Shown here one piece after another: positions 9,187 through 28,762 of a DNA stretch of 40,000 bases. Below the pieces are notes generated by a model that saw only the letters and a program-made list of their open reading frames with translations, had not been told where the DNA came from and made no database searches. The first letter of the stretch is position 1; every line of letters starts with the position of its first letter. This DNA comes from Desulfobulbaceae bacterium (GTDB taxonomy: Bacteria; Desulfobacterota; Desulfobulbia; Desulfobulbales; Desulfobulbaceae). The DNA is taken from positions 890,960-930,959 of the forward strand of contig CAXXDG010000002.1 in NCBI GenBank assembly GCA_963678525.2, in the 5' to 3' direction. Position numbers and translations under genes: made by a program.

Positions 9187-10101
9187 ATGGAGCTGAAATA
9201 TAAATTTCACAACGGTTCAGGAGTCATCGAAAACGATACAATATTTCTTCAATATGCTCTTCGAAAGGAATCCTATCCCCTGAAAGAGGTTGTCGGTTTG
9301 TATCGCTACAAGAGTTTCGGAATGGATACACTAGTTGTTGCTTCAGGTCTGCCCGGTGGAAAAATCAAATCAGAGCTCATTCTTCTCGGACGGGAAAATG
9401 TGCCGGAAGCATTTATAGATGAACTTGTAGCTCAGGCTCCGAAATCAGCCAACCTGTTGCATCTGCCAAAGAAGGAAGCGTTCAAGAAAATGGGAATAGC
9501 TGGAAAGATGCGATACAGCATGATTGCAGTGTTTATCCTCACTTTTCTGATTATATGCGGTTATTTTTCTCCCCAGATTTATCATGGAATTATGGACAGA
9601 CATCTGGTCCCGGTATCTGTTGAGGATATGTACGCAGGGAATTCACTTTCCTCAAACTTTGTCAGCGTGAATGCCCATCTGCCGACCTCACCCTTAATCG
9701 TCAGCTATACAAAATGGTGGTCTTCCTCCCGCCCATTTTTCGAAAGGAGAAAGAAAGGATTCTACCCCATTGTTCCCGGTGACTGGAAGCAGGGAGATCC
9801 TATACGAATGGTTCTGATGGTCGATGGAGGTTTCGAACTGAAAAATATCGCACTACACGAGGACAAGGACATAACCGTACAAGGTATCGTACGCAACGTC
9901 CTGTGGGAACGTTTTTTCTGGTCCGGTTCAATGGAGAACCTTTCCCGGCATGCAAAATCACCGGTCGAACATCCGATAGTAATAGAATACAACACCAGGC
10001 CCGTGTACGAAATGGTGTGGTATCTCGGCGGCACCCTGTTCTTTATAATCCTTTTTTTAAGCATCGCCGGTCTGCGGAGCAGAAACACGAATGGAAGATG
10101 A
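9187..10101 (+). CDS. Hypothetical membrane protein (two hydrophobic segments)
   Basis: 304-aa ORF with a GAAGGA RBS. Predicted TM segments MIAVFILTFLIICGYF and VWYLGGTLFFIILFLSIAGL. No recognisable family. Confidence 0.6.
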   Translation: MELKYKFHNGSGVIENDTIFLQYALRKESYPLKEVVGLYRYKSFGMDTLVVASGLPGGKIKSELILLGRENVPEAFIDELVAQAPKSANLLHLPKKEAFKKMGIAGKMRYSMIAVFILTFLIICGYFSPQIYHGIMDRHLVPVSVEDMYAGNSLSSNFVSVNAHLPTSPLIVSYTKWWSSSRPFFERRKKGFYPIVPGDWKQGDPIRMVLMVDGGFELKNIALHEDKDITVQGIVRNVLWERFFWSGSMENLSRHAKSPVEHPIVIEYNTRPVYEMVWYLGGTLFFIILFLSIAGLRSRNTNGR

Positions 10102-10337
10102 CATGCGGCAGGCAATCCCCCCATACGTTTTGCATAAAATAATGCGGCGGTAACTGCTCACAATGCACCTGATCTTTCCATGATCAAGTCGGCTTACGTA
10201 TGACCAAATATACGCTGCGCCGGCCTGCTTGCGTAAACCTCAGACACACTGTAATCAGTTATAAGTACGGGGGATTTGGCAAACTTAACCACTTCCCCTA
10301 TGAGTAGTTTCATGCTGCGAAGTAAATGAAAGGTAAT

Positions 10338-10372
10338 AAAAAAACCCGCTAACCATTGCTGGTTGCGGGTTT
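10338..10372 (-). terminator. Intrinsic terminator hairpin (distal copy)
   Basis: Minus-strand RNA CCCGCAACCA-GCAA-UGGUUAGCGGG followed by U7. Confidence 0.7.
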
Positions 10373-10431
10373 AACGAATCAAGGTGGACAACCTTGGATT
10401 ATAAAATGGTGCGAAGGCGGGAACGGAATTC
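10338..10431. repeat. Distal att repeat (terminator hairpin copy plus degenerate tRNA-Leu 3' fragment)
   Basis: 31 bp are identical to 28668-28698. Imperfect homology then continues through GGACAACCTTGGAT to TGGTGCGAAGGCGGGAACGGAATTC (compare the tRNA 3' end TGGTGCCGAAGGCGAGAGTCGAACTC). Confidence 0.85.
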
Positions 10432-10492
10432 AAGGGAATATTTTTAGTAAAATTAGATAATTGCCAAGTATGAGTTTTTTGTGTTTTTTATC

Positions 10493-10516
10493 TGTACCCG
10501 CTTTTGTACCCGCTTT
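10493..10516. repeat. Tandem 12-bp repeat TGTACCCGCTTT x2 (candidate integrase arm-type sites)
   Basis: Two exact tandem copies just inside the distal att. The octamer TGTACCCG recurs at 28614-28621 and inverted at 28564-28571, just inside the int-proximal att. Confidence 0.5.
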
Positions 10517-10664
10517 GTGCAGATGTAGATGGTCGCTTGACAAATTTGCCGGTTTAAACTTGCCAGCTCGGTTAGTACGAGTTGTTTTTTGTATCGGCGC
10601 TTTGCTGGGTGGACAACAAAAGAATATAATCCTGCCCTTGCAAACAGGCTTGATATAATGCAAA

Positions 10665-11999
10665 CTACAATGGTTTCCATGGAACAACCTCTGCCTGGCT
10701 AGGCCCTCTTTGTTTCAACCTGTTGCCATAAGTGCCAGAATACTGACAAACAGCGAGAATACCTAATTCTAAAAACCATAGCCCTAGATTCCAGGCTTCG
10801 AAAGTTGCATTGTCTAGCTGGCCTCGCTTTTTGTGCTCTGGGTGAACAAGAGAATTTCTTGTTTCAGTCAAAGCATGAGGAGCGTCTATCCAGTTATGTT
10901 TCTTGGCCAAGGTCTGTAGCTCTTTCATTTCGTTCGGTATTTCTATAGGGATGTCCAGGGATGAGAACAAAAGACGAAATTTATCTGACGCCCAAAGATC
11001 TTTAAAGCCTTTTGCGGTTACAAGTTTTTTGCTTTTAACTGCAAATTCATATGATAACCTTTCTATGGCTGCTTGCGTGAGTATGATTCCAGCGTCAATC
11101 CCTCTTGATGAGTCATTGGCAATAAGATACCAATAAATAACCTCATGAAGCGCTTCTTTCCAGTCGTCATCACTCCACTTGTCCATAAACTTCGGGAAAA
11201 AAACGCTAAGCTGCTCACCTCGCCTTCTATCGAACCATGAAAAGGTCGTATATCCAGTATCTCTGGGAGAAGACCAGCTTTCCCAGACCTGATTATAATT
11301 TCCATCATGCCCAACAGCGCAGACAGGATCAATCCACCTACCGATAGCAAATGAAAGAAAAAATTTCAAAGTATTAATGAAACACTCTGCTTCCTCCCCG
11401 CTATATGTAATATCGTCATTCTTCTCAAAAGAACCGATATGGGTTAAGCGATAGCCTCCTTCTTCTTTAAGTGATTCCATTGCCTTTTTGGTAGATTTCA
11501 GGGAGCGTATTTCAACGCACCAGTCATGGTTTTTCAACTCTAAATGCTCAATGGGGTGGCAGGTGTTCCCTTCTTTTTCAGTTGAACGCCTAGTACCTGA
11601 AAAGGAGACAAAATTAAGCAAGTGGAATGTTGTTGAAGCTATTGATGTATCATTGTTACCTGTACCAATGATTGGCTCATAGTGAGGGCTCCACTTTATA
11701 TCAAACTTACCCGTTGTGGCATCCCCGCCGCAGCTCAACCTGGATCCTTCTATTGGTATGCCGTTCATAGTAAAAATGACGCCTTGTGTTTTTCCCAATT
11801 GTACCCTCGTGGCGTCAACGGCTGATACTCCTTCAAAGTGACCATGAAAAAGCAATTGGCTTCGGGGAATCAATTCTAAGAATGCTTCCCCGTTTCCTTG
11901 ATAAGTAGTTTCGTCAATGGAAAGACTTACTGTTGAGCTGTTTATCAGCACTTTTTTATTATCTGAAAAGAAATCGTATATAGGCTCTATATTAGTCAT
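10665..11999 (-). CDS. HEPN-motif protein (ApeA-like), putative abortive-infection RNase
   Basis: 444-aa ORF in an AT-rich block. The C-terminal helical region carries ETRNSLVHPEH, i.e. the HEPN RNxxxH (Rx4H) motif at 10842-10859. The large N-terminal beta-rich domain fits the ApeA architecture (N-terminal domain plus C-terminal HEPN). The family call is from the motif only. Confidence 0.6.
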   Translation of the reverse strand: MTNIEPIYDFFSDNKKVLINSSTVSLSIDETTYQGNGEAFLELIPRSQLLFHGHFEGVSAVDATRVQLGKTQGVIFTMNGIPIEGSRLSCGGDATTGKFDIKWSPHYEPIIGTGNNDTSIASTTFHLLNFVSFSGTRRSTEKEGNTCHPIEHLELKNHDWCVEIRSLKSTKKAMESLKEEGGYRLTHIGSFEKNDDITYSGEEAECFINTLKFFLSFAIGRWIDPVCAVGHDGNYNQVWESWSSPRDTGYTTFSWFDRRRGEQLSVFFPKFMDKWSDDDWKEALHEVIYWYLIANDSSRGIDAGIILTQAAIERLSYEFAVKSKKLVTAKGFKDLWASDKFRLLFSSLDIPIEIPNEMKELQTLAKKHNWIDAPHALTETRNSLVHPEHKKRGQLDNATFEAWNLGLWFLELGILAVCQYSGTYGNRLKQRGPSQAEVVPWKPL

Positions 12000-12761: not shown

Positions 12762-13587
12762 CCTTTAGCTCTAGATGCATGTTGTTGTTTGTTTTATTTA
12801 CAATGTGTTCATATATAGCATTTTCTTCTCTTGTGTTAATAGTTTCTGAAATTGCTCCTTTGCCAACAAGGTATAAATCAGTTAAGTGATCCTGCAATTC
12901 GTCTTTTGCCTTAATTATTAGCTTTCCTAAACCATCATCTGGTATAGAATTTACAAATTTTTTAACTATTGGTTGAATATTTTTTCTTTTTTTGGGTTTA
13001 ATTACTATTTCGAATGATTCAACTTCACCAACATCATCAGCGTTTCCACCAACAAAATTGAGAATATCTGCAGCCATTGAATTTTCCTTTTCAATTTCAA
13101 TAGTCGTTCTTCCAAGAAATGGTAATTGCAGTACTTCTTCTTTAGACGCTTGATGCAAGAGAGCTTGTGCGATAAACCTATAGTGACCAAGGTCAACTTT
13201 ACGGAATATTTCATCAATAAGATGAACCAGAGCTGGTATTTTAGGAGCTAAAAATGTTGATGCAAAACCTAAGAAATTGTTTTGAATATATACATATGAT
13301 GCAAATCCTAGTTGCTCGCCTTGATCAAGAAGTTCATAGATTTCATTGACATTTAAATCATTGGTGTTGATTTTTTTAATGACTTCATTACTTCTTGTCA
13401 TCACGAATAGATAAATATCTTGTGCGGCAGGGAACAAATATATTTGTTCATTATTGTACTGAAATGAGTTTTTAAATGTTACTGAATCTAGATTGCAAAA
13501 TGTCCTTATCAATGCTCTTATGTCATACAAGTAAGACATATTATCTTCTGTTTTTTCAATGTGATAGCCGAAATAGTTCAATTTCAT
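12655..13587 (-). CDS. RexA-like protein (phage-exclusion sensor component)
   Basis: 310-aa ORF. Two blocks align with lambda RexA from memory. Block 1: KKINTNDLNVNEIYELLDQGEQLGFASYVYIQNNFLGFASTFLAPK vs QKINRSKASVEDIKNSLADDESLGFPSFLFVEGDTIGFARTVFGPT. Block 2: FLGRTTIEIEKE..DILNFVGG..ESFEIVIKPKKRKNI vs FIGRTTVKVEAK..DILKVLGA..DSLDIVIKPKFKRDI. Gene order matches rexA-rexB. Confidence 0.7.
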   Translation of the reverse strand: MKLNYFGYHIEKTEDNMSYLYDIRALIRTFCNLDSVTFKNSFQYNNEQIYLFPAAQDIYLFVMTRSNEVIKKINTNDLNVNEIYELLDQGEQLGFASYVYIQNNFLGFASTFLAPKIPALVHLIDEIFRKVDLGHYRFIAQALLHQASKEEVLQLPFLGRTTIEIEKENSMAADILNFVGGNADDVGEVESFEIVIKPKKRKNIQPIVKKFVNSIPDDGLGKLIIKAKDELQDHLTDLYLVGKGAISETINTREENAIYEHIVNKTNNNMHLELKVEEFSNDERFTEATPEDINSFIDVNSWTPYLPNIQ

Positions 13588-13608
13588 ACAATCCTCTTTG
13601 TTCCATAA

Positions 13609-14052
13609 CTAGGTCTTTTTCGAGTGATGATCTGGTGCCGATTCATACTGAGCGTTTACCGGCAAAAGGGTTGCGGCTTCTTTCAATTCACCGCTAATAA
13701 AATACCAGGGCATCGACGGTGACGGCGCTGTCCTGCAGGTATATTGCTTCCGGCGCTGCACCTGCAAGCGTTGCCCTTGCCAGGCTGTTTTCTTTTTCAA
13801 AAGATTTGCCATGGTTGCCGCAATGACCAACTTGTAGCGGAAATGACGCTGGTGCAGCCATTCCGCTACAAGTTGTGCACGTCTGCAATTGTTCCCCCAG
13901 GGTAAAATATCACCTGCCACAATGAGTATATCGCCTGGCGGCAAGTTGATTTTGGCATGCATTCCATTAAGAATTCTCCCAATTTTTATGCATAAAGAGA
14001 GGAAACTTGAAACAGATAAAAGTTTCATACCATGTTTCCATATAGTTGCCAT
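13609..14052 (-). pseudogene. Calcineurin-like metallophosphoesterase, frameshifted and 3'-truncated
   Basis: Frame A gives LPPGDILIVAGDI...YKLVIA. The expected GNHD block (GNHGKSFE...YLQDSAVTVDALVFY) is in another frame (track ORF 13694-13888), consistent with loss of 1 nt in the G run near 13818-13821. A premature stop follows, and the rest is missing or degenerate. Confidence 0.6.
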
Positions 14053-14181
14053 GCTGGTTTCCTTGTTTTATGTGAAAAACCAGGGGAAATTGACATAATT
14101 TCCAAAGTGTTTCCACGATGGTTTCCTTAAAATGGGTGAAAGTTTCCTGTTTCCTGTACTATAGGGAGGAAACCAGGAAAC
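14001..14181. promoter_or_regulatory. GGAAAC/GTTTCC iteron cluster 1
   Basis: GTTTCC at 14034, 14057, 14109, 14121, 14142 and 14149. GGAAAC at 14001, 14168 and 14176. The cluster lies between the prim-pol stop and the phosphoesterase pseudogene start. Confidence 0.6.
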
Positions 14182-14191
14182 TTTCGGTTTT

Positions 14192-16015
14192 TCATGCCTC
14201 AGCGCGGATCTGTTTTGCCAGTTTGGAGCAGTAGCCTTTACTGATTTCCAGCTCTTCGGCTATGTCCTTTTGGCTGTAGCCTTCATCGAGGAGTTTTCCC
14301 ACCTTATCCTGCAGGCTTTCCTCGATGGTGCGCAGCTGCCAGGTGAAACCGTCTTCCCCCGCTATCAGTCCGGCTTCGAATGGTTTTACGTCGTCCCCGT
14401 GCAGGCCTCGGTTTTTGCGGAAATGGACCTCGAACAGTGCGCCCTGGTCGGGTGTGTATGACTTTGGCCGCATGAGCTGGATAACCGTATCCAGTACATC
14501 TTCTTTTCTGGAGCTGCCTCGCTGCATGCCGCCTTTGCCGTCATGATGGACCAACAGCACCGATTTACCCATGGCCCGCATGCGGAGTGCCCATTCCTGT
14601 ACCGGTAACCAGGCGTCGGATTTATTTTCCGATGTGCTCCTGCAGACCGTGGAAATATTGTCCAGGATGATCAGGCTTATGTCCTCGGTGAGGATGGTAT
14701 CCACCTGGGCCTGGCCTTCAGGGCTGCCAAGGTCTGGAATGCTTCCCTGCTGCAGGCCAGGGGTAATGATCTGCAGGTTATCTGCCAGGCTCTTATCCAT
14801 GTTGGCCATGGTGCCAGCTATTCTTTCTTTAATGGTTACCGCCGGCATTTCTCCATCAATGAACAGCACGCCCCTGGGCTTATCCGCTTTCCAGTTGAGG
14901 AAACTGGATCCGGTTGCCACTGCGCAGCCGATCCCCAGGCTTATGTGGGTTTTGCCCACTCCCCGGTAAGCATGCAGCAGGCAAAGGCCCTGCTCTGGCA
15001 ACCAGGGGGAAAGCAGGTTATTCCGGGGCGGGAATTCCCGGGAAAGCAGGTTACCTGCTGTTATAACCACAGGTGAGGGCACCATTGGCCGGTTTTGTCC
15101 GGTTTCCATCCTGGTTTCTCCGGCCTGGCCGTAAAGGTTGCCGATGTTCGTTACAGTGTAACGGGGTGTCGGCTCCTGTTCAGGCGGAGCATTGTAAGAA
15201 AGCGCCTTTTTGATGGTTGCTTGCCCATAGGTCAATTGCCCGTGTCTTGTGTCCCATTTCTGCCGAAACAGGCAGGACGCCCGAAAAATGGCGTCCATTT
15301 GCTGTGGATCGTTGTTTGTCCAGAATGCCAGGATAGAACAAAGGGCAAGGTCGGCCTCGCTCTGGCTGGCGTAGCCGTTCATGTTGCCCTGCATGAGGTT
15401 TGCAAACAGCTGGGCCTGTTTGCTTGCCCGGATCCGCTCTACGGTTGCCATGCCTGCCTTGTCCAGGTTGTTGAGTGTAGCAGTCATTGCCGCCCGGGAA
15501 AAGACCTGGTCGATTTGCTGCTGGCAGTAGTTGACCTGGTCTACATGGGTTAGCCTGTGGCCGGTAATGGTGAGATACCAGGCGTGGTCATAGATTTCTA
15601 TATTCTTTTGCTTCAGGTTTCTGGGGATCTTCCCGGCTGCTATAATCCGCAAGCCTTCACCGCTGGGGCTGATCTCGGTATAGGTTTGCAGCTTGTGGAC
15701 AATCTCCATTGCTTCTTTGCTTGCGCCTCGGCTGCCTACGCAGTGGTCCAGATCTATAAAGACAAAGGGATCCTGTGCGGTGGTACAATAGCCGATACCG
15801 TCATAGCCGCCTTCCTCATAGGCGGCCATGACTTCGGAAAAATCAGCCCAATGGCTGGGGTTTGTTTTGTCGGCGGTTTTGCCGTTGATCCGGAACGGCG
15901 GCTTTGTCCAGCGGGAGCCCTGGAGCTGGTAGCACCACAGCACCCATTGTGGAAATGACTTGAGCTGTTCAGGAATGCCGGCTGCAACAATGTGTAAAGG
16001 GTTAGGCTTGGTCAT
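14192..16015 (-). CDS. Bifunctional prim-pol / RecA-like (AAA_25-type) replication ATPase with C-terminal HTH
   Basis: N-terminal prim-pol features (FPQWVLW, FVFIDLDHC DxD motif). Middle QSEADLALCSILAFWTNNDPQQMDAIFRAS is a primase C-terminal type helix bundle. Walker A YRGVGKTH and Walker B VLFIDGE are present. C-terminal SQKDIAEELEISKGYCSKLAK is an HTH. GGGGAGGA RBS. Confidence 0.8.
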   Translation of the reverse strand: MTKPNPLHIVAAGIPEQLKSFPQWVLWCYQLQGSRWTKPPFRINGKTADKTNPSHWADFSEVMAAYEEGGYDGIGYCTTAQDPFVFIDLDHCVGSRGASKEAMEIVHKLQTYTEISPSGEGLRIIAAGKIPRNLKQKNIEIYDHAWYLTITGHRLTHVDQVNYCQQQIDQVFSRAAMTATLNNLDKAGMATVERIRASKQAQLFANLMQGNMNGYASQSEADLALCSILAFWTNNDPQQMDAIFRASCLFRQKWDTRHGQLTYGQATIKKALSYNAPPEQEPTPRYTVTNIGNLYGQAGETRMETGQNRPMVPSPVVITAGNLLSREFPPRNNLLSPWLPEQGLCLLHAYRGVGKTHISLGIGCAVATGSSFLNWKADKPRGVLFIDGEMPAVTIKERIAGTMANMDKSLADNLQIITPGLQQGSIPDLGSPEGQAQVDTILTEDISLIILDNISTVCRSTSENKSDAWLPVQEWALRMRAMGKSVLLVHHDGKGGMQRGSSRKEDVLDTVIQLMRPKSYTPDQGALFEVHFRKNRGLHGDDVKPFEAGLIAGEDGFTWQLRTIEESLQDKVGKLLDEGYSQKDIAEELEISKGYCSKLAKQIRAEA

Positions 16016-16233
16016 GGCAGGTCCTCCCCTTGATTGGTCTTGTAAGCCTGGTAAGCTTCATATGCCTTTCTGAAGTCGCCCATGGTCATACCAGGGGTAA
16101 CCAGGTTGCTGTCCAGAAATGCCTGGTAATTGGCATTAGTGACGGTATTGGTTGGTTTGATCTTGGCGTATGCTTCTGCAGATGGCTTCACTGCTTCCAC
16201 TACCCTGATTGTCAGTTGTTTTTCTTTGCTCAT
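16012..16233 (-). CDS. Hypothetical small protein (73 aa)
   Basis: GGGAGGG RBS. ATGA start/stop overlaps with both neighbours indicate translational coupling. Confidence 0.6.
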   Translation of the reverse strand: MSKEKQLTIRVVEAVKPSAEAYAKIKPTNTVTNANYQAFLDSNLVTPGMTMGDFRKAYEAYQAYKTNQGEDLP

Positions 16234-16547
16234 CTTTCAAACCCTCCCATATCGCGTGCCGTCTCTTGGATTCTGAGAGATAACAACCTGCAGGCTGCGG
16301 TTATCTGGTAAATGCCGGCGGAAAAGGATTCTCCGTCTGCAGGCAGTTCTCTGGCCGGGCCTGTGGCATGCTCTACCACCTGGAGAACGTTGCTCAATGT
16401 TTCTGCCATTAAAGAAAGCTCGTAAGCGTCCTTTGGCTGCCTTTCTGCGGCGATCATGGCCACCAGGCCGTCTGTTTCGCTGTTGTTCCAGTCTGGATCG
16501 ACATTGTACAGGAGCTGGTGGTTTGATGAGGTTATCTGTGCTTTCAT
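16230..16547 (-). CDS. Hypothetical protein (~105 aa)
   Basis: ATG at 16547 lies 7 nt after GGAGG (the track start at 16553 is a GTG). It is coupled to flanking genes. No recognisable family. Confidence 0.6.
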   Translation of the reverse strand: MKAQITSSNHQLLYNVDPDWNNSETDGLVAMIAAERQPKDAYELSLMAETLSNVLQVVEHATGPARELPADGESFSAGIYQITAACRLLSLRIQETARDMGGFER

Positions 16548-16549
16548 TC

Positions 16550-16972
16550 TCACACCTCCTGCTGTTGGTTGATTTCAACGGCAATAACAGTGCCGCTGGG
16601 TACGACAATGGCCTTGTGGTTGGCAATAACCGCATAGATTTCCGTGTTTGTTTCGAGCAGGTGAAAGAATACCTGGGAAACACGATCATTCAGGCAGCCG
16701 ATAAGCACCTGGCCTATCTTGCCCCTGGCTCCCAGGGGGTGGCCATATTGGCCGTTATCGCGCACCATTTGCAGAAACAACTCTTCAAGGGGGGAAACAA
16801 GCTCTTCTCTGAGGTAGGTATCCAGGTCCACGAATTCAACCTGGTCGCTGGTCAAGGTTTTGCCTTTGACCTGCCAGGTTTGCCTGTGTGGCGCTGGCTG
16901 CTGGGGTTGTAAATGGGAAGAGGTACGGTTTTTCTGATTACTGCGGGCGGGGAAAATGGGTGTTGTAGCCAT
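16550..16972 (-). CDS. Hypothetical protein (140 aa), first gene of the prim-pol operon
   Basis: ATG at 16972 lies 8 nt after GGAGG. The track ORF extends to 17053 but has no RBS. No recognisable family. Confidence 0.6.
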   Translation of the reverse strand: MATTPIFPARSNQKNRTSSHLQPQQPAPHRQTWQVKGKTLTSDQVEFVDLDTYLREELVSPLEELFLQMVRDNGQYGHPLGARGKIGQVLIGCLNDRVSQVFFHLLETNTEIYAVIANHKAIVVPSGTVIAVEINQQQEV

Positions 16973-17350
16973 GTGTGCTACCTCCAAATAAAAAATGCCA
17001 CGAGTGCTCTCAAGCCTAGTACGGCTCCCGGGGCCTCGCGGGATCCCGGACACTCATGGCAAATTGTATTTGAACTATCAGCAGACCTGGTTTTGGGTGC
17101 CGGTCTGATGCACCGTACTAGTTTGAGAGGTCTGCAGATTATCAGCAGGAAAAGAAATCGTCAAGCCTGGGGTTGCTGCTACCGGGTGTGAGCGGTCGTT
17201 TTTGTTACCACAGAAAGAGGGGAGATGGGTTGCTTTTCGGCTGGATAACAGGCCTGCTGGATAGTGGGGAGCACTGTAACTGCATGACCACAAGAGGTGG
17301 GTGGGGATACTCTCTGTGGTGAGCAGTTGTTCTTCTTTAGTGAATACACA

Positions 17351-17451
17351 GGAAACAGGAAACTTTTTATCTATCTTATTGTTGTTCTATTTAAAAAGTG
17401 GTTTCCTGGGCAGGAAACTTGCTGGAAACCGTGAGGAAACAAGGTGGAAAC
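17351..17451. promoter_or_regulatory. GGAAAC iteron cluster 2 with 11-bp phasing
   Basis: GGAAAC at 17351, 17358, 17413, 17424, 17435 and 17446; the last four are exactly 11 bp apart. One inverted GTTTCC at 17401. The cluster lies in the divergent region between the prim-pol operon and the IHF/HU gene. Confidence 0.65.
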
Positions 17452-17597
17452 CTGTACCTATCCGGCATAAAAGAAGAAAAACAGGTTTGGTCGATTTGAC
17501 TTTTCAAGATACACGTGCCATAAGATGTGTTTCGGAACCACTATGTGGTAGTTGAATGTAAAAATTTTTTCCTCAAAATTATAATCAAAGAGACATA

Positions 17598-17891
17598 ATG
17601 AAACTGACAAAAGCCCGCATGGCTGATGAGATTGCCAAGGTGCATGATATGGCTTCCATAAGGGAAGCGAGTGAATATGTTGAAGCCTTCCTTACTGTTA
17701 TTAAACAGGAGATGGTAGCCGGTAACGACATATTGATTTCAGGATTCGGAAAGTTCACGGTCAGGGATAAGCGGCAACGGCGCGGCAGGAATCCACAGAC
17801 CGGTGATGATTTACTGCTTGACCCGAGAAGGGTTGTCACCTTCAACCCGTCCGGCAAGCTGAGGATGAAAGTTAACGGGAAGCTGAATTGA
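17598..17891 (+). CDS. IHF/HU family DNA-bending protein (IHF-alpha-like), island-encoded
   Basis: 97 aa. GFGKFTVRDKRQRRGRNPQTGDDLLLDPRRVVTFNPSGKLRMKV matches the beta-arm signature of IHF/HU. Confidence 0.88.
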   Translation: MKLTKARMADEIAKVHDMASIREASEYVEAFLTVIKQEMVAGNDILISGFGKFTVRDKRQRRGRNPQTGDDLLLDPRRVVTFNPSGKLRMKVNGKLN

Positions 17892-17908
17892 CAGTTGGTG
17901 GAATTACT

Positions 17909-17951
17909 CCGGCATGTATGCGGGGCTTTTGTTCTGGAGCATACATGCCGG
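17909..17951. terminator. Bidirectional hairpin between convergent IHF/HU and tape-measure genes
   Basis: Perfect 13-bp stem CCGGCATGTATGC / GCATACATGCCGG with a 17-nt loop. No strong T tract. Confidence 0.5.
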
Positions 17952-17972
17952 TAAGAATGTGTGTAAGTGTTC

Positions 17973-20639
17973 TTACCTTGCCCCTGACCAGTGGAATTCA
18001 TTAATTGCTTTCAGTACGGTGCGGGCAATATTATTTGCATCCGCCCTGCTGGTCATAAATCCGCCGACCTTAAGGTTTACCGTGTTATTGACAACCTGGC
18101 GGCCTGTTTGTGCTGCCGCTGTGGCCTGGCCGCCTTGCTGAAATTTTTGGATCCCTTGAGGATTGAGTACCATGGTATTGTTTATAAGACCGCCTGTGCG
18201 TGCCCTGAGAAGTTCCATGGAGTTTAGCTGCAGGGCATTGAGGGCTTGGAAATAGGCTGCGCCGTATTTGCGTACTGCCTCTTTGCGGATAACGAATTCA
18301 CCGGCCTCCAGGAGGGCAGGGATCCGGTCCCCTCCGCCATAGCCTGAAAGTTTTCCTCCTGATCTCAGTTTGTGAACCATGCCACCTGTTGCTTTGGCCG
18401 CTACTTCCTGCACCTTGACGTTTATTTGGTAATCCCTGTTGACCAGGTCGTTCAGTTTTTGCTGGAGGTCATCAACAGAGTCTGAGCCGCCTTTCAGGAA
18501 ATCGTTCCAGGTTTTATTCCAGGCTTTATTGAAGTCAGTTGCTGTCTCCTTCAAGGCTTCTGCCTCTTTACTTATAGCCCCAAATTCTTCAGCCAGCTTG
18601 CCGCCTGTTTGATCGTCCAAGGCCTGGGCTGCCTCCTCGGCTGCTGCTTTCTGTTGCTGTAATATTTCTGTGGCCAGCTTTCCTGCCTGTTCCACCCCGG
18701 CCATGGCTGTTTTGAGCGCGGTCTGCTGGCTTATAATGGTATTGTCGTTTACCTTGACTTCGTTGTTAAGGTCTGCATAAGCTGTTTTGGCCATGTCAGC
18801 ATATTTAATTGCCGTGCTGAAGTCGCCGGACTGGGCCGCCTTCTTGGCTGCAGTTTCGTATTCCTGGGCCTCTCTTTTGCGATCCTGCCAGGCGCTGTAG
18901 TCATCCATGCCGGTCCTGGACATGGAGCGGAGCTGTTCCTGCAGGGACCGTTCCCTGTTGACGATTTCATCCTGCAGCCTAGTTATCTCGCTGACGTATG
19001 TCTGGTACTGCTGTTTCAACTTTTCCAGCTTTTCCTTACCGAGTTGAACCTCTTGGTCGGCTGTCTGTTTGGCCTTGGTTCCGACCTTGTTATAGGCTGT
19101 TTCCGCCACCTCGCCATAATCATTCATGGCGCTTTCGATCTGTTCCAGTCTCGTCCTTGCTGCAGCCAGTTCCACTTCGGCCTGGCGAGCTTCATTGGTC
19201 ATGCCGCCAAATATGGTTCTATCTTTGGATTTGAGGTAGAGGTCCTGTACAATGGCAGACTGGTGTTTGAAGGCTCCTATGAGTTGATTTTCATAGGCTC
19301 GGAGTTCGGTGGTGCTCTTGGCGAATAAGCTTTCTTTGCTTTCCGGTTGAAAATAAGCAAACTGCCTGAATTTAGCGGCGGTAATGTCCAGCTCGTGCTG
19401 CAGCTCGCGCAAGGCTATTTCTGTAGGCTCTGTCCATTCATAGAGCTTGGTGCCAATGGCCATGCCTGCTATCAGGGCGAGGGTTGCCCCTGCTGCTGCT
19501 CCCAATGCTGCGCTTGCAGTAAGTGCGGCAGCTCCGGATCCGGTAAGGGCGACATTCAGGCTGCCAAGGTAACGAATAAGGCGCATGCCTGTCATAGCCA
19601 TCATGGCGGCGTTGAGCCCCTGCCATGCGCCGGTAAGTATGACTACTGCTTTGTGTACGGTTAACAGGGCGGCCGAACCCAGGCCGAGTTTTACTGCAAG
19701 TTCTCCATGATTGACGGCGGCATTGAGAACAGCTTCAGCCATGGTGAAAAAGCGGTTGGAGAGGGTTACTATCTTGTCTTGAAGGTTTGGGTCGGATAAG
19801 GCTGCGGTGAAATCTGTAATTTTCCCGGTGACGGTATCAAGAAAGCCTGACTTTGAGACGGTGGTAGCAAGGTCGAACCAGGCGTTCTTGAATTTATTGA
19901 TAGCGGCCTGGGCGCTGTTGCTTGCATCCAGTGCGGCCTGGCCGAATTTGTTGTGAAGCACCTCTGAAAGTTTGGGGATGAAGTCTGTGGAAACGATCTG
20001 GCCTGCTGATATCAGGCCGAACAGTTCTTCTGTGCTTGTGCCTACGGCTTTTGCAAAGTCCTGAAAGCCGACCCCAGGGAGGGCCTCTGCGATCGTTTTT
20101 AGATCTTCCAGTTCAAACCTGCCGCGGCTTATTCCCTGGGAGATCTGGGCAAAGGTCCGGTTGATTTCGTCACCGGATGCGCCTACAGCAGCGGCGGTTT
20201 CTGATACAGCCCTGAACAGATCGCGCGTTGCCGCTCCTTCAATGTCTGTGCCCTGGCTGGCAGCAATGAGCCCCCTGTATGCTGTGGCAGCTGACTGGAA
20301 TTCTATCCCAAGCTGGTTGGATGTTTCTTTCAGGTATTCAAGTTCAGATCTGGCTGCAGCCGAACTGCCGGTGATTGATTGAAAACTCTTCTGCAGGTTG
20401 TCGAATGCCAGGCCTGCGTCAAATACGCTTTTGGTGAATGCTGCCGCCGATACTCCACCAAAGAGACCGGCAAGCTTGGAGGGTAAGCCTAACAGGCTGT
20501 TGTTGAGTGCCCTGGAATGATTCAGGCTCGACTGGATGCTCTTGTCAAAAGTGTCGAATCCTTTGTACGCATTCTTGATGCCCTTGTTAAAGGCGGTCGG
20601 GTCGATGGAGAGTATAAAGTCTATTTCTTTCTTGCCCAT
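17973..20639 (-). CDS. Phage tail tape measure protein
   Basis: 888 aa. N-terminal tape-measure block (RGRFELEDLKTIAEALPGVGFQDFAKAVGTSTEELFGLISAGQIVSTDF), a hydrophobic Ala/Gly-rich centre and long coiled coils. The C-terminal GGDRIPALLEAGEFVIRKEAV motif is typical of TMPs. Confidence 0.85.
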   Translation of the reverse strand: MGKKEIDFILSIDPTAFNKGIKNAYKGFDTFDKSIQSSLNHSRALNNSLLGLPSKLAGLFGGVSAAAFTKSVFDAGLAFDNLQKSFQSITGSSAAARSELEYLKETSNQLGIEFQSAATAYRGLIAASQGTDIEGAATRDLFRAVSETAAAVGASGDEINRTFAQISQGISRGRFELEDLKTIAEALPGVGFQDFAKAVGTSTEELFGLISAGQIVSTDFIPKLSEVLHNKFGQAALDASNSAQAAINKFKNAWFDLATTVSKSGFLDTVTGKITDFTAALSDPNLQDKIVTLSNRFFTMAEAVLNAAVNHGELAVKLGLGSAALLTVHKAVVILTGAWQGLNAAMMAMTGMRLIRYLGSLNVALTGSGAAALTASAALGAAAGATLALIAGMAIGTKLYEWTEPTEIALRELQHELDITAAKFRQFAYFQPESKESLFAKSTTELRAYENQLIGAFKHQSAIVQDLYLKSKDRTIFGGMTNEARQAEVELAAARTRLEQIESAMNDYGEVAETAYNKVGTKAKQTADQEVQLGKEKLEKLKQQYQTYVSEITRLQDEIVNRERSLQEQLRSMSRTGMDDYSAWQDRKREAQEYETAAKKAAQSGDFSTAIKYADMAKTAYADLNNEVKVNDNTIISQQTALKTAMAGVEQAGKLATEILQQQKAAAEEAAQALDDQTGGKLAEEFGAISKEAEALKETATDFNKAWNKTWNDFLKGGSDSVDDLQQKLNDLVNRDYQINVKVQEVAAKATGGMVHKLRSGGKLSGYGGGDRIPALLEAGEFVIRKEAVRKYGAAYFQALNALQLNSMELLRARTGGLINNTMVLNPQGIQKFQQGGQATAAAQTGRQVVNNTVNLKVGGFMTSRADANNIARTVLKAINEFHWSGAR

Positions 20640-22808: not shown

Positions 22809-22877
22809 AACTCGTATGAATTTCTCTGCTGTTTTTGCTCATTTTGAAGGTCGAAATTGCTCAAAACCTGGCGTTTA

Positions 22878-23215
22878 GCTGTCACCAGGAGGTGGAAAAT
22901 AGCGGTTTTGCTGTCACCAATTGCCATTCAGCTGTCACCAAATTGAAGTGAAAATTTTAAGCGCGACCTACTTAATACTATATAACTATATAATATTATT
23001 ATATATGTTATATACAGAGGTTGCTATCTGGTGACAGTGGTTACAGTGGTGACACCTGTTTTTTACGCGCGTGAGAGTTGTTCTCTTTTTTCAGTAAACT
23101 CTTTTTCTATTAAGGGGAAAATGCTGTCACCACTGTAACCACTGTCACCAGTGACCTAATTACAACGAGTTAACACTGTCACCACGATTTTTTTTCAGTG
23201 TAACCACTGTCACCA
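22878..23215. promoter_or_regulatory. Replication origin candidate: 9-bp iterons CTGT(C/A)ACCA flanking an AT-rich unwinding element
   Basis: There are 12 copies. Direct copies start at 22879, 22911 and 22932. Inverted tandem TGGTGACAG/TGGTTACAG/TGGTGACAC spans 23029-23055. Direct tandem copies span 23124-23150, with further copies at 23176, 23198 (GTGTAACCA) and 23207. Nearly pure A/T sequence lies at 22971-23016. Confidence 0.7.
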
Positions 23216-25842
23216 GGATCTGGCTCGGTTGCTTCATCGGGAGTGCCTAGGTTGTTTTGGTGCCACTTAAGGTCGAAAACCCATACTCTTCTTTGTTTGG
23301 GTCTCCCTGATTTGTCAGTTTCTGGGTCATCGGGGAAACGGTAGGCATAGCTGTTTTTGACGTATGATGGATGAGCTTGCAGGGCCTTGGCGAGTTGCTC
23401 GTTTACCTGAAAGTTCAGTCCTTTGTTCTTTAAGAGGTTCTCAACTCTGGGTAGATTGACGAGTATTCTGTTTTTTTCAGAGTCAAGATGATAGGCAGTA
23501 GCCGCCTTATCGTCCGGGAGAGTGTCCAGCAGCTCGAAAAAATAATCTGCGGTGGTTGTTTGTCGGATAGCTGAGGTAATGCATTTCTGGCGGCAGATAT
23601 CTCTGAAGTAATCAGTAACCGCCTGGTCCTGCTTGATAGAATACAGGCTACAAAAAAGGCGGTGAAATGCCAGAATGAGTGCATGGTTATCCAGTATCCT
23701 TCTTTCTGGCATGGGGGATAGGTCTGTTCTGGCTTTTTTCCATTCTTCGGTCCAGTTTGACTCAAAGTGCTTGCGATTCATCAATACATTTTGAATGAGT
23801 CCGGCCAGGATTGGCTTGTCCATGTTCGTTAGCTTTTCGTAAGCTACCCGGGAATTGTCGGTTAGGTCTTCGGCTTTAAAATGAAGGGAAATTACGCGCT
23901 GGCGCTCGGCTTTTGAATTGAACGGCTCGGTATTTTGACAAAATAGAAGCGCCCCAAGAAAGGGGTTTTCCTTGGTTTGTAAGTCGGCGCTGAATGTTGC
24001 CTGCACTTGCAATGGGCCTCGATTATAGGCCGTCAAAATGATGCTATAGTCAAACCCTCGCTCGTTACGCTCGTTATCCTCAAGCAGGGCGGTAAACAGT
24101 CCACTGAGTTGGCCAATGGTTCGTATGCTTCCTTTTTTAGAATTGAGCTGGGTAACAGGCAGGCCTTCACCGTCTCGCCCCTGGATGGCGTTCAGTAGCG
24201 TTACTAAAGCGCTTTTCCCTGATGCTGGATCCCCGTGTAAGCTGAGAAAAGGGAAAAAATTGCACTCTGCCTTTATTTGATTCACGAAAAAACTTGAAAG
24301 TACCAAGGAAAAGGCAGAAATCCCGTTCAGGCCCCATGCGTCATGCAGCAGAGTATATATTTCTTTGACCTGAGATTTGTTGATTGTTGCAGGGGAAATG
24401 GCCTTGCCGGCGCCATGAACCGGCGGCCGGTAAGATTGGTTGTAGGCTATTCGAAAGTGTCCCCGTTTGTCTGGCAGGAAAAGCTTGCCTTCTGGACCCA
24501 CGCCCCAGTCGTGGAAGATATAACTGTCGTTTTCAGGCTGATATCCGATAACCTGGGCCTGGCATACCTCAGGTGCTGACTGGTCACTGGTGATCTTGGT
24601 TTGAAATGCAGTGGCCGCCCTTGGGTTGCCTTCCCAGTTTATTTTAGCCCGAGAAAGAAAAAACTCGTTTATGGATCGTGAGTTGACCAGGTTGGTCCCC
24701 GTGGCGGTAACCTCGATCTGCTTTCCTTTTGGTGGTTGTACAATGAGGTTGTAAAGATATTCTGGCTGTGCTGGGTTGGCTTTGTTGATCAGGTAACTGT
24801 TCACCCGAACTGTGGCTCTCAAGCAGCGCTCTACATCAAGAAATGGCGTGTCGTTGCCTTTCTGTTTCTTTAATGCGCTGTAATAGGTTGAGCCTTGAAA
24901 ATTGAACAGTCCTGGGGCTCGATGATAAAATTCGTTATAAATTTCCGCCCACTCAGTGGAGGTCTTGGCCAAGGCCAATTCTCCATTGTGTTTAAAACGG
25001 GGAAGGGAACGCTGAAAGTATTTTCTGGCGTCCTCCAGTGAGCTGGAAGAAGCCAGGAGGTCGTTCCAGTCTTTACCTGGATCACACAAATAGACTTCTG
25101 CTTCTGGATAAACTGCCGACCATTTGGCACAAGCACGATGGCCGGCAGGATCATTATCAAAAGCAAGCACCTTATTTTTAAATTCTGACAAGTCTACCTT
25201 GTGCGGATCCTGGCCGCTTGATATCACAGCAATGGCTTGGTAACCAAGCTCTATTAGGGATATAGCGTCGATAATCCCTTCTACGGCCCATACTTTTTTT
25301 TCTGGATCATAGGTAAAGCCTGGGTGGCGGTAGAAAATTGATTTCGGGCTATTAATATTGTGTGTTTTCCCCTCACCTGGTGGTGGGGAAAACAGTCTCC
25401 CATTTAGGATCTCTTTGCCCTTGCTATCCTTGCCTATAGGAAACATGACAGCGCCGGATCCTGTGTTTCTCACATTCTTGAGATAACGAAAATCAAGGCC
25501 ATCAAGTGTCTTGTTGATTCCCCTGGACTTAAGGTATTCCCGGGCAGGCTTGTGGGGATCGTTTTTCGTGGCCGGAAAGTCCTTTTCGACGTTCCCTTTC
25601 AGTTCAGGAAAAAGCTCAAGTGTTTTCGTGCTGGTGCCACAGTTCGAAAGCCTGTTACAGTTAATCGCCATGGGGCTTTGTTGGTACGCCCATGCGCTCT
25701 TGTCCCCACATGCTGGACAGGTGAGTCCTTGGATGCTATTTCCGTTACACCTGGTATGCCTGTTCCAATAGGGTGACTGTTTGAGGCGATCGAGGATTTT
25801 GTTGGTTAGGCCTTGCAACGCTTTACCTCCAGGTTGTTTCAT
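23179..25842 (-). CDS. Zn-finger / Toprim primase fused to P-loop helicase (P4 alpha / PICI Pri-Rep analogue)
   Basis: 887 aa. N-terminal CPACGDKSAWAYQQ...NCNRLSNCG zinc finger. Toprim block VWAVEGIIDAISL...VLAFDNDPAGHRA. Walker A LHGDPASGKSAL. The C-terminal domain abuts the iterons. Confidence 0.85.
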   Translation of the reverse strand: MKQPGGKALQGLTNKILDRLKQSPYWNRHTRCNGNSIQGLTCPACGDKSAWAYQQSPMAINCNRLSNCGTSTKTLELFPELKGNVEKDFPATKNDPHKPAREYLKSRGINKTLDGLDFRYLKNVRNTGSGAVMFPIGKDSKGKEILNGRLFSPPPGEGKTHNINSPKSIFYRHPGFTYDPEKKVWAVEGIIDAISLIELGYQAIAVISSGQDPHKVDLSEFKNKVLAFDNDPAGHRACAKWSAVYPEAEVYLCDPGKDWNDLLASSSSLEDARKYFQRSLPRFKHNGELALAKTSTEWAEIYNEFYHRAPGLFNFQGSTYYSALKKQKGNDTPFLDVERCLRATVRVNSYLINKANPAQPEYLYNLIVQPPKGKQIEVTATGTNLVNSRSINEFFLSRAKINWEGNPRAATAFQTKITSDQSAPEVCQAQVIGYQPENDSYIFHDWGVGPEGKLFLPDKRGHFRIAYNQSYRPPVHGAGKAISPATINKSQVKEIYTLLHDAWGLNGISAFSLVLSSFFVNQIKAECNFFPFLSLHGDPASGKSALVTLLNAIQGRDGEGLPVTQLNSKKGSIRTIGQLSGLFTALLEDNERNERGFDYSIILTAYNRGPLQVQATFSADLQTKENPFLGALLFCQNTEPFNSKAERQRVISLHFKAEDLTDNSRVAYEKLTNMDKPILAGLIQNVLMNRKHFESNWTEEWKKARTDLSPMPERRILDNHALILAFHRLFCSLYSIKQDQAVTDYFRDICRQKCITSAIRQTTTADYFFELLDTLPDDKAATAYHLDSEKNRILVNLPRVENLLKNKGLNFQVNEQLAKALQAHPSYVKNSYAYRFPDDPETDKSGRPKQRRVWVFDLKWHQNNLGTPDEATEPDPGDSGYTEKKSW

Positions 25843-27306: not shown

Positions 27307-28545
27307 TCACTTGTTTGCTTGCTGCCCAATTGGAATTATCTCTGCACCATATTCAAGTTGTTGCAGTAGATCCGCCCACCACTGCATGAGCTCACGGCGC
27401 TGTTCCATGTATTCGCTTCGATGATAAGCTGCCCGGATCTTATTTCTTTCTTCATGGGCGAGTGCTTTTTCAATTACATCACCATTAAATCCTGATTCAT
27501 TGGCAATAGTGCTGAAGGTGGCTCTAAAGCCATGCACAGTCGCTTTAGAATGATATCCGAGGCGGTATAATCCATACAGCATTGTATTTGCGGATAACTG
27601 TTTACTGCCCTGTCTGATTCCTGGAAAAATAATTCCCTGCCCTCCGTAAAGCACTTTGAGCCTTTGAAGGATGGCTAATGCCTGCTTTGAAAGAGGAACA
27701 TTGTGCTGGCTGGACATCTTCATTCTTTCTGCAGGGACTCTCCAGATATTATTTTCCCAGTCTATTTCGTTCCAGGTTGCCCCCCTGACTTCATCTGTCC
27801 TTGCAGCGGTGAGTATCAGAAATTGGAGTGCAAGTTTTGTATTGATATGGATATCGCCGGCAGAAATATCCTTTAGCATTTGGGGCAAGTCTTCCCGACT
27901 GATAGCGGCATGGTGTACTCGTTTTTTTGGTTTCAGAACACCCTGCATGTCTGCAGCTGGATTATACGTTGCGCGGCCAGTTTGGATGGCATACCGAAAA
28001 ACAGAGCTCATTCTCTGTAATACTTTTCGTGCTATTTCTAATGCGCCCCGTGATTCTATGCTTCTGATTATTTCGAGTATTTGTGGTGGTGATATATTAT
28101 CAATGGGAAGATGGCCTATACTGGGAAAGGCATCGTGTTGAAGTGTTGCCAGGACGTGGTCACTATGGCTTTTTGACCAGCGTTCTCGCTGAAGAGTCAC
28201 CCACTCCTGGGCCAGTGATTCAAAAGAGTCTCTCTTGCTTTGATTTTTCGCACGTTCTTCTTCAATAACAATCTGCTTCTCTTCACGTCGTTTGCTTGCC
28301 GGGTTCTTTCCAGCTTTGACAAGCTCCCTGGCCTCCTGTCTTGCTTTCCTGGCATCCTCTAAACTAATTTTCGGGTACGACCCGATCACGTACGTTGATT
28401 CTGTACCCGCTATTTTGTAACGGTAGCGCCAGGTTTTCTTTCCAGACTTGGCAACGTGAAAATATAAGCCATGGCCATCACTTAGCTTGTATGGCCTTTC
28501 TTTTGTCTGAGCGTTGCGGACTTGAAGAGCGGTGAGTTTACCCAT
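27307..28545 (-). CDS. int: Tyrosine recombinase, P4-type integrase with DUF4102-like arm-binding N-terminus
   Basis: N-terminus GKLTALQVRNAQTKERPYKLSDGHGLYFHV...KTWRYRY. Catalytic residues are visible in LTAARTDEVRG, HGFRATF and LAHEERNKIRAAYHRSEY. ATG at 28545 lies 7 nt after GGAGGGG. Confidence 0.92.
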   Translation of the reverse strand: MGKLTALQVRNAQTKERPYKLSDGHGLYFHVAKSGKKTWRYRYKIAGTESTYVIGSYPKISLEDARKARQEARELVKAGKNPASKRREEKQIVIEEERAKNQSKRDSFESLAQEWVTLQRERWSKSHSDHVLATLQHDAFPSIGHLPIDNISPPQILEIIRSIESRGALEIARKVLQRMSSVFRYAIQTGRATYNPAADMQGVLKPKKRVHHAAISREDLPQMLKDISAGDIHINTKLALQFLILTAARTDEVRGATWNEIDWENNIWRVPAERMKMSSQHNVPLSKQALAILQRLKVLYGGQGIIFPGIRQGSKQLSANTMLYGLYRLGYHSKATVHGFRATFSTIANESGFNGDVIEKALAHEERNKIRAAYHRSEYMEQRRELMQWWADLLQQLEYGAEIIPIGQQANK

Positions 28546-28667
28546 GTTTCCCCTCCATGAAATCGGGTACAAAATATAAGGGTATTCGTGTGCGAAATGC
28601 TTATACCCACATCTGTACCCGATTATTTCATGGATTTCAATGGAAGAAAATGGAGTGTGATGGAAAC

Positions 28668-28700
28668 AAAAAACCCGCTAACCATTGCTGGTTGCGGGAT
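28668..28700 (-). terminator. Intrinsic terminator of tRNA-Leu / secG operon
   Basis: Same hairpin as at 10345-10369, followed by U6 on the minus strand, 35 nt after the tRNA CCA end. Confidence 0.75.
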
Positions 28701-28762
28701 TTAAGTACCAAGATGGACAACCTTGGATATATAATTGGTGCCGAAGGCGAGAGTCGAACTCG
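28668..28762. repeat. tRNA-proximal att repeat
   Basis: Counterpart of 10338-10431. It spans the tRNA terminator hairpin, the 35-nt spacer and the last ~26 nt of tRNA-Leu. Confidence 0.85.

Follow-up and report, generated by a model that had tools for sequence, protein, structure and literature searches.

Two dense clusters of the hexamer GGAAAC flank a small replication operon in a genomic island of a Desulfobulbaceae bacterium, and they raise the question of which protein reads these repeats and what happens at them. The DNA analysed (the window) is a stretch of 40,000 nucleotides from assembly GCA_963678525.2 (contig CAXXDG010000002.1, positions 890,960 to 930,959), and the genome belongs to Desulfogranum. 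The main product of the operon, here called Rep, is a protein of 607 amino acids (aa) that joins a primase-polymerase (prim-pol), a RepA-type hexameric helicase and a C-terminal helix-turn-helix (HTH) domain. A preliminary description of the window had taken the clusters for an iteron origin, or for autoregulatory or partition-type sites, of a second replicon. According to our analysis, GGAAAC is probably the iteron recognised by the Rep HTH, with cluster 1, directly 3' of rep, as the replication origin and cluster 2, upstream of the operon, as an auxiliary cis-acting array (coordinates in Table 1).

Scanning the window for exact matches located GGAAAC in cluster 1 at 14001, 14168 and 14176 on the plus strand and at 14034, 14057, 14109, 14121, 14142 and 14149 on the minus strand, and in cluster 2 at 17351, 17358, 17413, 17424, 17435 and 17446 (plus) and 17401 (minus). 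The four copies from 17413 to 17446 are spaced by exactly 11 bp. Every position and the phasing given in the preliminary description were thereby confirmed, as was the statement that the clusters bracket the rep operon. If one mismatch is permitted, cluster 1 gains five copies (14008, 14022, 14045, 14085, 14098), which reveals a phasing of 11-12 bp there as well. The window contains 46 copies, compared with 24.2 +/- 5.4 in shuffled sequences, and none of 100 shuffles reached 46. Outside both clusters, 30 copies are spread over ~39.7 kb; at this rate ~0.14 copies would be expected in the 181 bp of cluster 1 (nine seen, Poisson ~1e-13) and ~0.08 in the 101 bp of cluster 2 (seven seen, ~1e-11). 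Furthermore, in the whole 5.57-Mb genome the pattern GGAAAC-N5-GGAAAC-N5-GGAAAC occurs in cluster 2 only. Shuffles, local rate and this genome-unique array all agree with the earlier claim that both clusters are non-random. Other GGAAAC pairs in the genome (7-8 bp apart) were rejected as additional sites; they are isolated and lie inside coding sequences.

Rep matches the Pfam families AAA_25 (3e-29) and NrS1-1_pol-like_HBD (7e-27). Among PDB sequences, its N-terminal part is similar to the primase-polymerase of phage NrS-1 (1e-38) and to 7ola (7.5e-36), which we take to be PriRep5 of SaPI5. The helicase part has a profile match to RepA of plasmid RSF1010 (3e-7), and the AlphaFold2 model of the 291-aa C-terminal half (predicted local distance difference test, pLDDT, 86.9) retrieved RSF1010 RepA as top Foldseek match, with template modelling (TM) scores of 0.65/0.75. 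The predicted structure shows the terminal three-helix HTH with high confidence; its last helix, the recognition helix, is KGYCSKLAKQIRAE, and we propose this helix as the reader of GGAAAC. Rep has no Toprim or superfamily 3 (SF3) domain and no Rep_3/RepA-RepE winged-helix match in Pfam or NCBIfam; it is therefore outside both the Rep_3 family of iteron plasmids and the P4 alpha family. Searches with the helicase-HTH half returned no match among phage proteins and one partial match only among 72,556 plasmid records. In other elements this helicase-HTH module occurs either by itself or fused to various primases (prim-pol, Toprim, DnaG-type zinc finger, RepB-type).

Among 401 genomes of the phylum, 16 encode relatives of the helicase-HTH half, as do 80 metagenomic loci. 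The preliminary description had named a lack of the repeats in homologous elements as the result that would speak against it. The clusters are, however, kept in every close homologue examined, both of them in two metagenomic elements (73% and 68% Rep identity) and in Desulfolithobacter dissulfuricans (G010; 64%), where 16 GGAAAC directly follow rep and a cluster 2 of the same layout is present. Desulfogranum japonicum DSM 18378 (G001), from the genus of the window genome, has a decayed rep, and cluster 1 is still there. A dense cluster of a single hexamer, starting ~0-130 bp past the rep stop codon, is the dominant picture among all helicase-HTH relatives. In all seven genomic relatives that are more distant, a dense cluster with the same layout is present at this distance 3' of rep, with few copies elsewhere, whatever primase is fused. 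Sufficient 3' flank was available at 66 metagenomic loci; at 45 of them, one hexamer is present in 8-16 copies 3' of rep and in few copies elsewhere in the locus. As ~14 of these 66 loci have just 2-5 copies, in five or six cases with a top hexamer that is not NNNRAC, the 3' cluster is common and not universal. The recurring layout consists of an inverted pair, a direct pair, phased sites, a 43-67-bp gap, phased sites and inverted sites. In those relatives that were inspected with 8 kb on each side, the 3' cluster is the only one.

Locus L014 has three 3' clusters in tandem, each extra one together with a duplicated 72-114-aa C-terminal fragment of Rep. Here (9758-10714), tandem duplications of the rep 3' end have given rise to free-standing open reading frames (ORFs) of 103 and 142 aa, 81-93% identical to the Rep HTH region and each followed by its own full iteron cluster. 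These fragments may act as stand-alone iteron-binding regulators, or they may be mere by-products of recombination.

Starting at the rep side, cluster 1, with its nine exact and five one-mismatch copies, contains an inverted quartet of two plus two sites, a row of three iterons at 11-12 bp, a 41-bp gap, a row of four at 11-12 bp and a terminal inverted pair. The quartet is a dyad that is kept almost letter for letter in D. dissulfuricans and D. japonicum, in the former with the same 13-bp centre. Units of 2+2 sites built from other hexamers are present in L044-L048 and L051. We regard the dyad as a candidate site for double-hexamer loading and first melting. The 41-bp gap contains a relaxed DnaA box (TTTTTCACA, 14071-14079); such boxes occur four times in the window (4.1 by chance), and this one is conserved neither in D. 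dissulfuricans nor in D. japonicum. In many relatives, a small gene (100-140 aa, MSLKAL...) begins in the central gap of the origin (e.g., L044:1702, L045:3983, L046:4028, L048:3993, L056:3292, L097:3982, among others), and its codons traverse the second iteron set, which is read there as GN, RN, ET or AT codons. Synonymous differences suggest that this gene is truly coding. In the window it is cut to a 23-codon remnant (~14094-14026, minus strand).

The main evidence that it is the Rep HTH, and not another protein, that reads the repeats comes from comparing recognition helices with hexamers at ~60 loci with at least six hexamer copies. All these hexamers fit NNNRAC, and they are sorted by the helix: ..G.VSK.. 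is found with GGAAAC, NKGY[VI]SRL with GGCAAC, [NHD]KSNVSR with CGCAAC, [NH]KSTVSR with TGCAAC (the commonest hexamer class of the family), GKSTISK with TGAAAC, NKSSV.Y with TCTAAC and SKS...R with (C/T)GGGAC. Importantly, the hexamer tracks the helix even where the tree of the ATPase does not. On a tree built from the ATPase columns, the Lys/Arg residue of the helix changes ~7 times and position 3 of the hexamer (A/C) ~8 times, and several sisters differ in both helix and hexamer (L015/L007, L099/(L058, L064, L073), L048/L049 and L091/L111). Three of the four well-supported independent pairs agree with Lys going with A and Arg with C, none opposes it, and the fourth (L029/L030) changes another position of the hexamer. 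The pairing of Arg with a C:G base pair would be chemically sensible. The co-variation is descriptively strong and consistent in direction, with few phylogenetically independent contrasts, and it suggests that iteron specificity resides in the C-terminal domain of Rep.

What kind of site cluster 1 may be is indicated by Staphylococcus aureus pathogenicity islands (SaPIs) and other phage-inducible chromosomal islands (PICIs). In these elements, 6-12 penta- or hexanucleotide iterons located just 3' of rep are bound by the C-terminal domain of Rep, and the cloned rep-ori unit replicates (PMC9371898; PMC6092414). Inverted iterons 15-17 bp apart have been proposed as the place of first melting in SaPI origins, and the SaPI5 iteron is TGCAAC(C) (bioRxiv 10.64898/2026.10.17.759575). 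As a position directly 3' of rep, short iterons, opposed sites and a C-terminal reader on a self-loading helicase-primase all match these origins, cluster 1 is best read, from its sequence, as an origin of SaPI/PICI style recognised by the Rep HTH. The earlier idea of an iteron origin is thus upheld for cluster 1 by position, anatomy and ~80 relatives. The two clusters are not equivalent: the 3' cluster is widespread, whereas cluster 2 is a lineage-specific extra. In the mechanism that we propose, Rep hexamers would dock on the phased sites via their flexible HTH domains, and two Rep assemblies would meet head-on at the 2+2 dyad and melt its 13-bp centre and/or the 41-bp gap. Rep would then load itself as helicase and prime with its own prim-pol domain. 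Cluster 2 would most likely pair with the origin via Rep and thereby influence replication or expression in cis, either by handcuffing or looping, as in the case of P1 incA, or as a helper site comparable to P4 crr.

Several observations weigh against this interpretation. About one fifth of the metagenomic loci with enough flank have a weak 3' cluster or none. The 41-bp gap of cluster 1 is only moderately A+T-rich (~67%, 98th percentile) and less easily melted than the spacer of cluster 2 (99.7th percentile), and the gaps of the relatives are not A+T-rich on average (0.54 vs 0.50), leaving an A+T-rich centre unsupported as a family-wide origin feature. Because the MSLKAL... gene is degenerate in the window, the origin could in principle be decayed, too. 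As to the reader, the Rep HTH matches curated models only below their cut-offs (HTH_7, 8e-4), the independent pairs are too few for significance (sign test, median p 0.25), and the pair L029/L030 does not follow the simple rule (A for K, C for R).

Cluster 2 has its own design. It starts with a pair of sites at 7 bp (17351 and 17358), followed by an A+T-rich spacer (17364-17400), the inverted copy at 17401 and the four sites at 11 bp. Within the spacer, 17368-17397 (83% A+T) belongs to the least stable 0.3% of all 30-mers of the window. This layout is kept in all five GGAAAC-type copies (the window, L013, L014 and two in D. dissulfuricans), and the last phased site is exactly 55 bp from the pair in the window, L013, L014 and D. 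dissulfuricans. The shared design thus comprises a row of three or four sites spaced by 11 bp, frequently a single inverted site, the A+T-rich spacer and the 7-bp pair. Two modules of GGCAAC type in D. dissulfuricans follow it with their own hexamer. Two other lineages also have second arrays upstream: two 2+2 dyads in L048 and a complete origin duplicate in L051. These arrays, like those of the close prim-pol subfamily, are always made of the hexamer that is cognate to the respective 3' array.

In D. dissulfuricans (locus L007), the cluster 2 module is present four to five times (9742-9831, 10139-10220, 10686-10775, 11011-11090, 12977-13056), interspersed with a Fic/SocA-Panacea toxin-antitoxin pair. 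Two of the modules are ~90% identical over ~350 bp and have GGCAAC at every site; no Rep of GGCAAC type was found in this genome. On the strength of this comparison, cluster 2 appears to be a second array for the same Rep that is dispensable for the basic mechanism of the family and prone to duplication.

The candidate promoter of the rep operon lies outside cluster 2. The preliminary description had placed cluster 2 in the promoter region between the operon and a divergent gene for an IHF/HU-like protein. This neighbouring gene is indeed there. The sole conserved promoter-like element of the operon, however, is ~190 bp away from cluster 2 (130-220 bp among relatives). Its aligned form is TTGAC(G/A)-15-(G/T)ATAA(T/C), and the pattern TTGACG-15-GATAAT occurs once in the window; as the 15-nt spacer is atypical, we infer the promoter function rather than assign it. 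Downstream of it come a structured leader and then the gene of protein A, which starts with an ATG at 16972 and is preceded by the ribosome-binding site GGAGG; start codon and ribosome-binding site are kept in the alignment of the region between cluster 2 and this gene (A3). RNAalifold predicts 28 pairs for the leader, 10 of them with compensatory changes among only four sequences. No Rfam family corresponds to it, and no Rfam match was obtained for 13500-18000 as a whole. The leader could be an attenuator or the target of an antisense RNA that controls rep expression, as in P4 immunity or in countertranscript systems of plasmids. A consensus scan found no promoter within the spacer of cluster 2, where six aligned copies share a loose A/T pattern and no consistent TAnnnT on either strand.

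The role that we favour for cluster 2 is cis-regulation through Rep-mediated pairing with the origin. That it is instead an indispensable half of a bipartite origin, or an origin of its own, with initiation requiring both arrays or beginning in its spacer, seems rather unlikely to us. Such a function would fit iterons that flank the most easily melted 30-mer of the region, with opposed copies, as well as an internal spacing strictly kept at 55 bp (5 x 11); in L013, inverted copies enclose cluster 2 as they would a small origin, and L051 has its complete second origin copy upstream. Nevertheless, those relatives whose flanks were covered for 8 kb in both directions, and most metagenomic loci, manage with the 3' cluster alone, and cluster 2 lacks a 2+2 dyad with a conserved centre. 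Four or five modules in D. dissulfuricans, two of them without a matching Rep, would be odd for an essential part of an origin. A classical operator, at which Rep directly represses the promoter of the rep operon or that of the divergent HU gene, is improbable. Cluster 2 lies 130-220 bp upstream of the conserved promoter and the structured leader, at a variable distance, and its spacer has no conserved sigma-70-like promoter on either strand. The HU gene adjoins cluster 2 in one relative only (L013) and has its own promoter-like site there, and regulation could be carried by the separate conserved leader with its terminator-like hairpins. All this outweighs, in our opinion, the location of cluster 2 between the operon and the HU gene and the resemblance of the inverted copy GTTTCCtgggcAGGAAAC to an operator of iteron plasmids, which commonly autoregulate rep via iteron-like inverted repeats.

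The reader of the hexamers might also be another protein. In the close subfamily, proteins A and B are kept alongside rep, neither of them has a family match, and the HU/IHF gene adjoins cluster 2; the repeats would then be transcription or architectural sites rather than Rep sites. This is very improbable, given that 3' clusters are present where rep is a stand-alone helicase-HTH gene and homologues of A and B were not seen, that hexamer and Rep HTH helix differ together even where the ATPases are sisters, and that neither cluster contains an IHF consensus. To our knowledge, direct repeats of 6 bp are not a type of site that HU/IHF proteins recognise. Plasmid centromeres, too, typically have short repeats in phase, and the profile of the Rep HTH, among weak matches to HTH proteins, touches the HTH of P1 ParB (E 0.2). 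Still, we found no gene of ParA, ParB or ParM/R type among the island proteins, and a position that stays directly behind rep in elements of many types is what one would expect of an origin; the reading of either cluster as a centromere-like partition site of the excised element, akin to the earlier suggestion of a partition-type site, is unsupported and has hardly any probability left. Finally, it is conceivable, although quite unlikely, that the upstream arrays are a separable iteron module that can be copied and serves both control and conflict between elements, with a rewritable helix code beneath. In this case, Rep would handcuff the module to the origin and lock the 3.3-kb rep operon in a loop, and modules of foreign specificity, such as the orphan GGCAAC modules of D. 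dissulfuricans, would be decoys titrating the Rep of competing islands. The basis would be a very large family of one-polypeptide, self-loading initiators of RepA type, whose three-helix HTH would read NNNRAC by a simple rule for the third hexamer position, A for Lys and C for Arg.

Compared with known systems, the design of auxiliary array, rep operon and candidate origin follows the logic of SaPI/PICI, P4 and P1/F elements and is no new principle; it is built here with a little-studied protein family. Like the SaPI initiators (PriRep5 and its ori; Rep and ori of SaPI1 and SaPIbov1), Rep is a predicted self-loading initiator-helicase fused to a prim-pol, with an N-terminal domain homologous to 7ola and a C-terminal domain that would read 5-6-nt iterons, 6-12 of which, partly opposed, lie directly 3' of rep; moreover, the SaPI5 iteron corresponds to the commonest hexamer class of the present family. 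However, the helicase is of the RecA-fold RepA/DnaB type here, whereas SaPI Reps are SF3 or MCM-like AAA+ proteins, and the reader is a bare three-helix HTH at the C-terminus rather than a winged helix using its beta-wing. No sequence similarity between the C-terminal domains was detected. The centre is not strongly A+T-rich here, and there is a second array upstream of the operon. With the Gram-negative PICI EcCICFT073 the island shares the integrative lifestyle and the order of pri-rep followed by an ori of two iteron sets, whereas the Pri-Rep of that element is distantly related to P4 alpha (PMC6092414) and the island has a prim-pol with a RepA-type helicase. A further difference is that alpA and genes for packaging or capsid redirection were not recognised in this island.

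In satellite phage P4, the alpha protein, a Toprim primase and SF3 helicase with a C-terminal DNA-binding domain, binds the same 8-bp iteron (TGTTCACC) at ori and crr, which are kilobases apart, flank its own operon and are both required; a leader with transcription termination control lies in front of this operon. In contrast, Rep has neither Toprim nor SF3, its iterons are 6 bp long and most relatives have the 3' locus only, and the likeness to P4 is functional only. P4 alpha and its cis site are also mentioned in PMC6092414. A module more similar to P4 than Rep is found in the 887-aa Toprim protein of the same island with its CTGT(C/A)ACCA repeats. In plasmids P1 (incC/incA) and mini-F (incB/incC), two arrays of the same iteron bracket rep, one being part of the origin and the other controlling copy number by titration and handcuffing. 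The same-iteron arrays around the rep operon, conserved in L013, L014 and D. dissulfuricans, resemble this arrangement. Nevertheless, the P1 and F initiators are Rep_3/winged-helix proteins without helicase or primase, their iterons have 19-22 bp, their origin array is located upstream and overlaps the rep promoter, and these replicons depend on DnaA, DnaB and DnaG. RSF1010 (IncQ) provides the closest solved helicase, RepA (1g8y, 1nlf), and replicates independently of host primase and helicase from an iteron origin; there, however, RepA, RepB' and RepC are separate proteins instead of a single polypeptide, and 20-bp iterons and ssi sites are used. Fusions of a primase, a RepA/DnaB-type ATPase and a C-terminal (w)HTH domain in integrated mobile elements are reported in the relevant passages of Kazlauskas et al. 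2018, where the terminal domain was guessed to recognise the origin; these passages do not describe origins, iterons or a correspondence of helix and hexamer (PMC5862659). A limited literature search likewise yielded no description of the origins of these fusions, of NNNRAC iterons or of such a correspondence.

The locus provides a concrete candidate origin and initiator for a class of integrative islands that occurs in sulfate reducers and numerous uncultured bacteria and is scarcely represented in collections of plasmids and phages. Together with its relatives, it forms a compact natural series for studying origin recognition by a self-loading RepA-type helicase, in which protein architecture and origin layout stay the same and roughly a dozen hexamer specificities track a few residues of a single helix. 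Such a series could help to build orthogonal replicons for laboratory strains. The second array, conserved in layout and yet dispensable across the family, offers a natural handle on copy control or incompatibility of the islands.

Table 1. Features of the rep region, with positions in the window.
Feature	Position	Strand	Description
Cluster 1	14001..14181		Proposed replication origin, 11 bp 3' of the rep stop codon
Dyad	14142..14181		GTTTCCtGTTTCC-tgtactataggga-GGAAACcaGGAAAC; two sites facing two across a 13-bp centre
rep	14192..16015	-	607 aa; prim-pol and helix-bundle (aa 12-277), RepA-type hexameric helicase (aa ~320-560), C-terminal HTH
Rep HTH	14195..14326	-	C-terminal three-helix HTH; helices 248-261, 266-273 and 277-290 of the modelled 291-aa half
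Protein B	16230..16553	-	107 aa; conserved operon partner; homologues in L013, L014, L015, G010
Protein A	16550..16972	-	140 aa; first conserved gene of the rep operon; homologues in L013, L014, G010
Leader	16973..17135	-	Structured 5' leader of the rep operon, ~160 nt; two terminator-like hairpins, each followed by a U-run; alignment A3
Candidate rep-operon promoter	17138..17164	-	TTGACG-15-GATAAT; conserved in L013 and L014, less clearly in G010
Cluster 2	17351..17451		Auxiliary iteron array, inverted relative to cluster 1
IHF/HU-family gene	17598..17891	+	Divergent from the rep operon; Bac_DNA_binding 3e-24; IHF-alpha model 1.6e-28, below cut-off

The island is 18.3 kb long, is flanked by 74-nt repeats (10339-10412 and 28668-28741) and adjoins a tRNA-Leu(GAG) gene, at which it is integrated, and a tyrosine integrase gene. 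On the minus strand, the integrase is followed by the 887-aa Toprim/P-loop protein, a tape-measure-like protein, cluster 2, the rep operon, cluster 1 and low-GC cargo including RexA/RexB-like genes. The order of Toprim protein, tape-measure-like protein, cluster 2, A/B, rep and cluster 1 is shared with L014, and the island is therefore not a chance composite. General family scans of the island proteins recognised no genes for terS, capsid redirection or AlpA-type regulators, and the DNA from 13600 to 17900 had no match among phage records and complete E. coli genomes.

Three small ORFs had been assigned to the rep module in the preliminary description. Only proteins A and B proved to be conserved, and they belong to no Pfam or PHROG family even under permissive thresholds. 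A 71-aa ORF (17078-17293), considered as first gene of the operon, has no similarity to the ORF of 70 aa found at this site in L013 and shares part of its length with the conserved promoter and leader; it is probably no gene. Another rejected candidate is a 147-aa ORF (13609-14052, minus strand) that begins within cluster 1, has no family match and resembles non-coding or decayed sequence. It contains a stretch, GDILIVAGDI, that recalls a fragment of a metallophosphoesterase, and may on this account be left over from a gene at the border to the low-GC Rex cargo. The IHF/HU-like gene is a neighbour of the rep operon in the window and L013 only; its product is a possible architectural cofactor of the repeats, weakly linked to them. 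The IHF consensus WATCARNNNNTTR, tried as a component of the clusters, has four matches in the window, none of them near either cluster.

The gene for the 887-aa Toprim/P-loop protein (23179-25842, minus strand) has a homologue with 47% identity in L014 (1-1277), which lies there upstream of the tape-measure-like gene and the rep module. CTGT(C/A)ACCA repeats (22869-23219) are located at and just past the 3' end of this gene and enclose the least stable 30-mer of the window (22976-23005, 93% A+T). By its sequence, this region appears to be a second case, within the same island, of an origin placed after its gene. Near both ends of the island there are four copies of TCTGTACCCGCTTTT-like 15-mers (10491-10517, 28400-28414, 28612-28626), which are candidate arm-type sites of the integrase.

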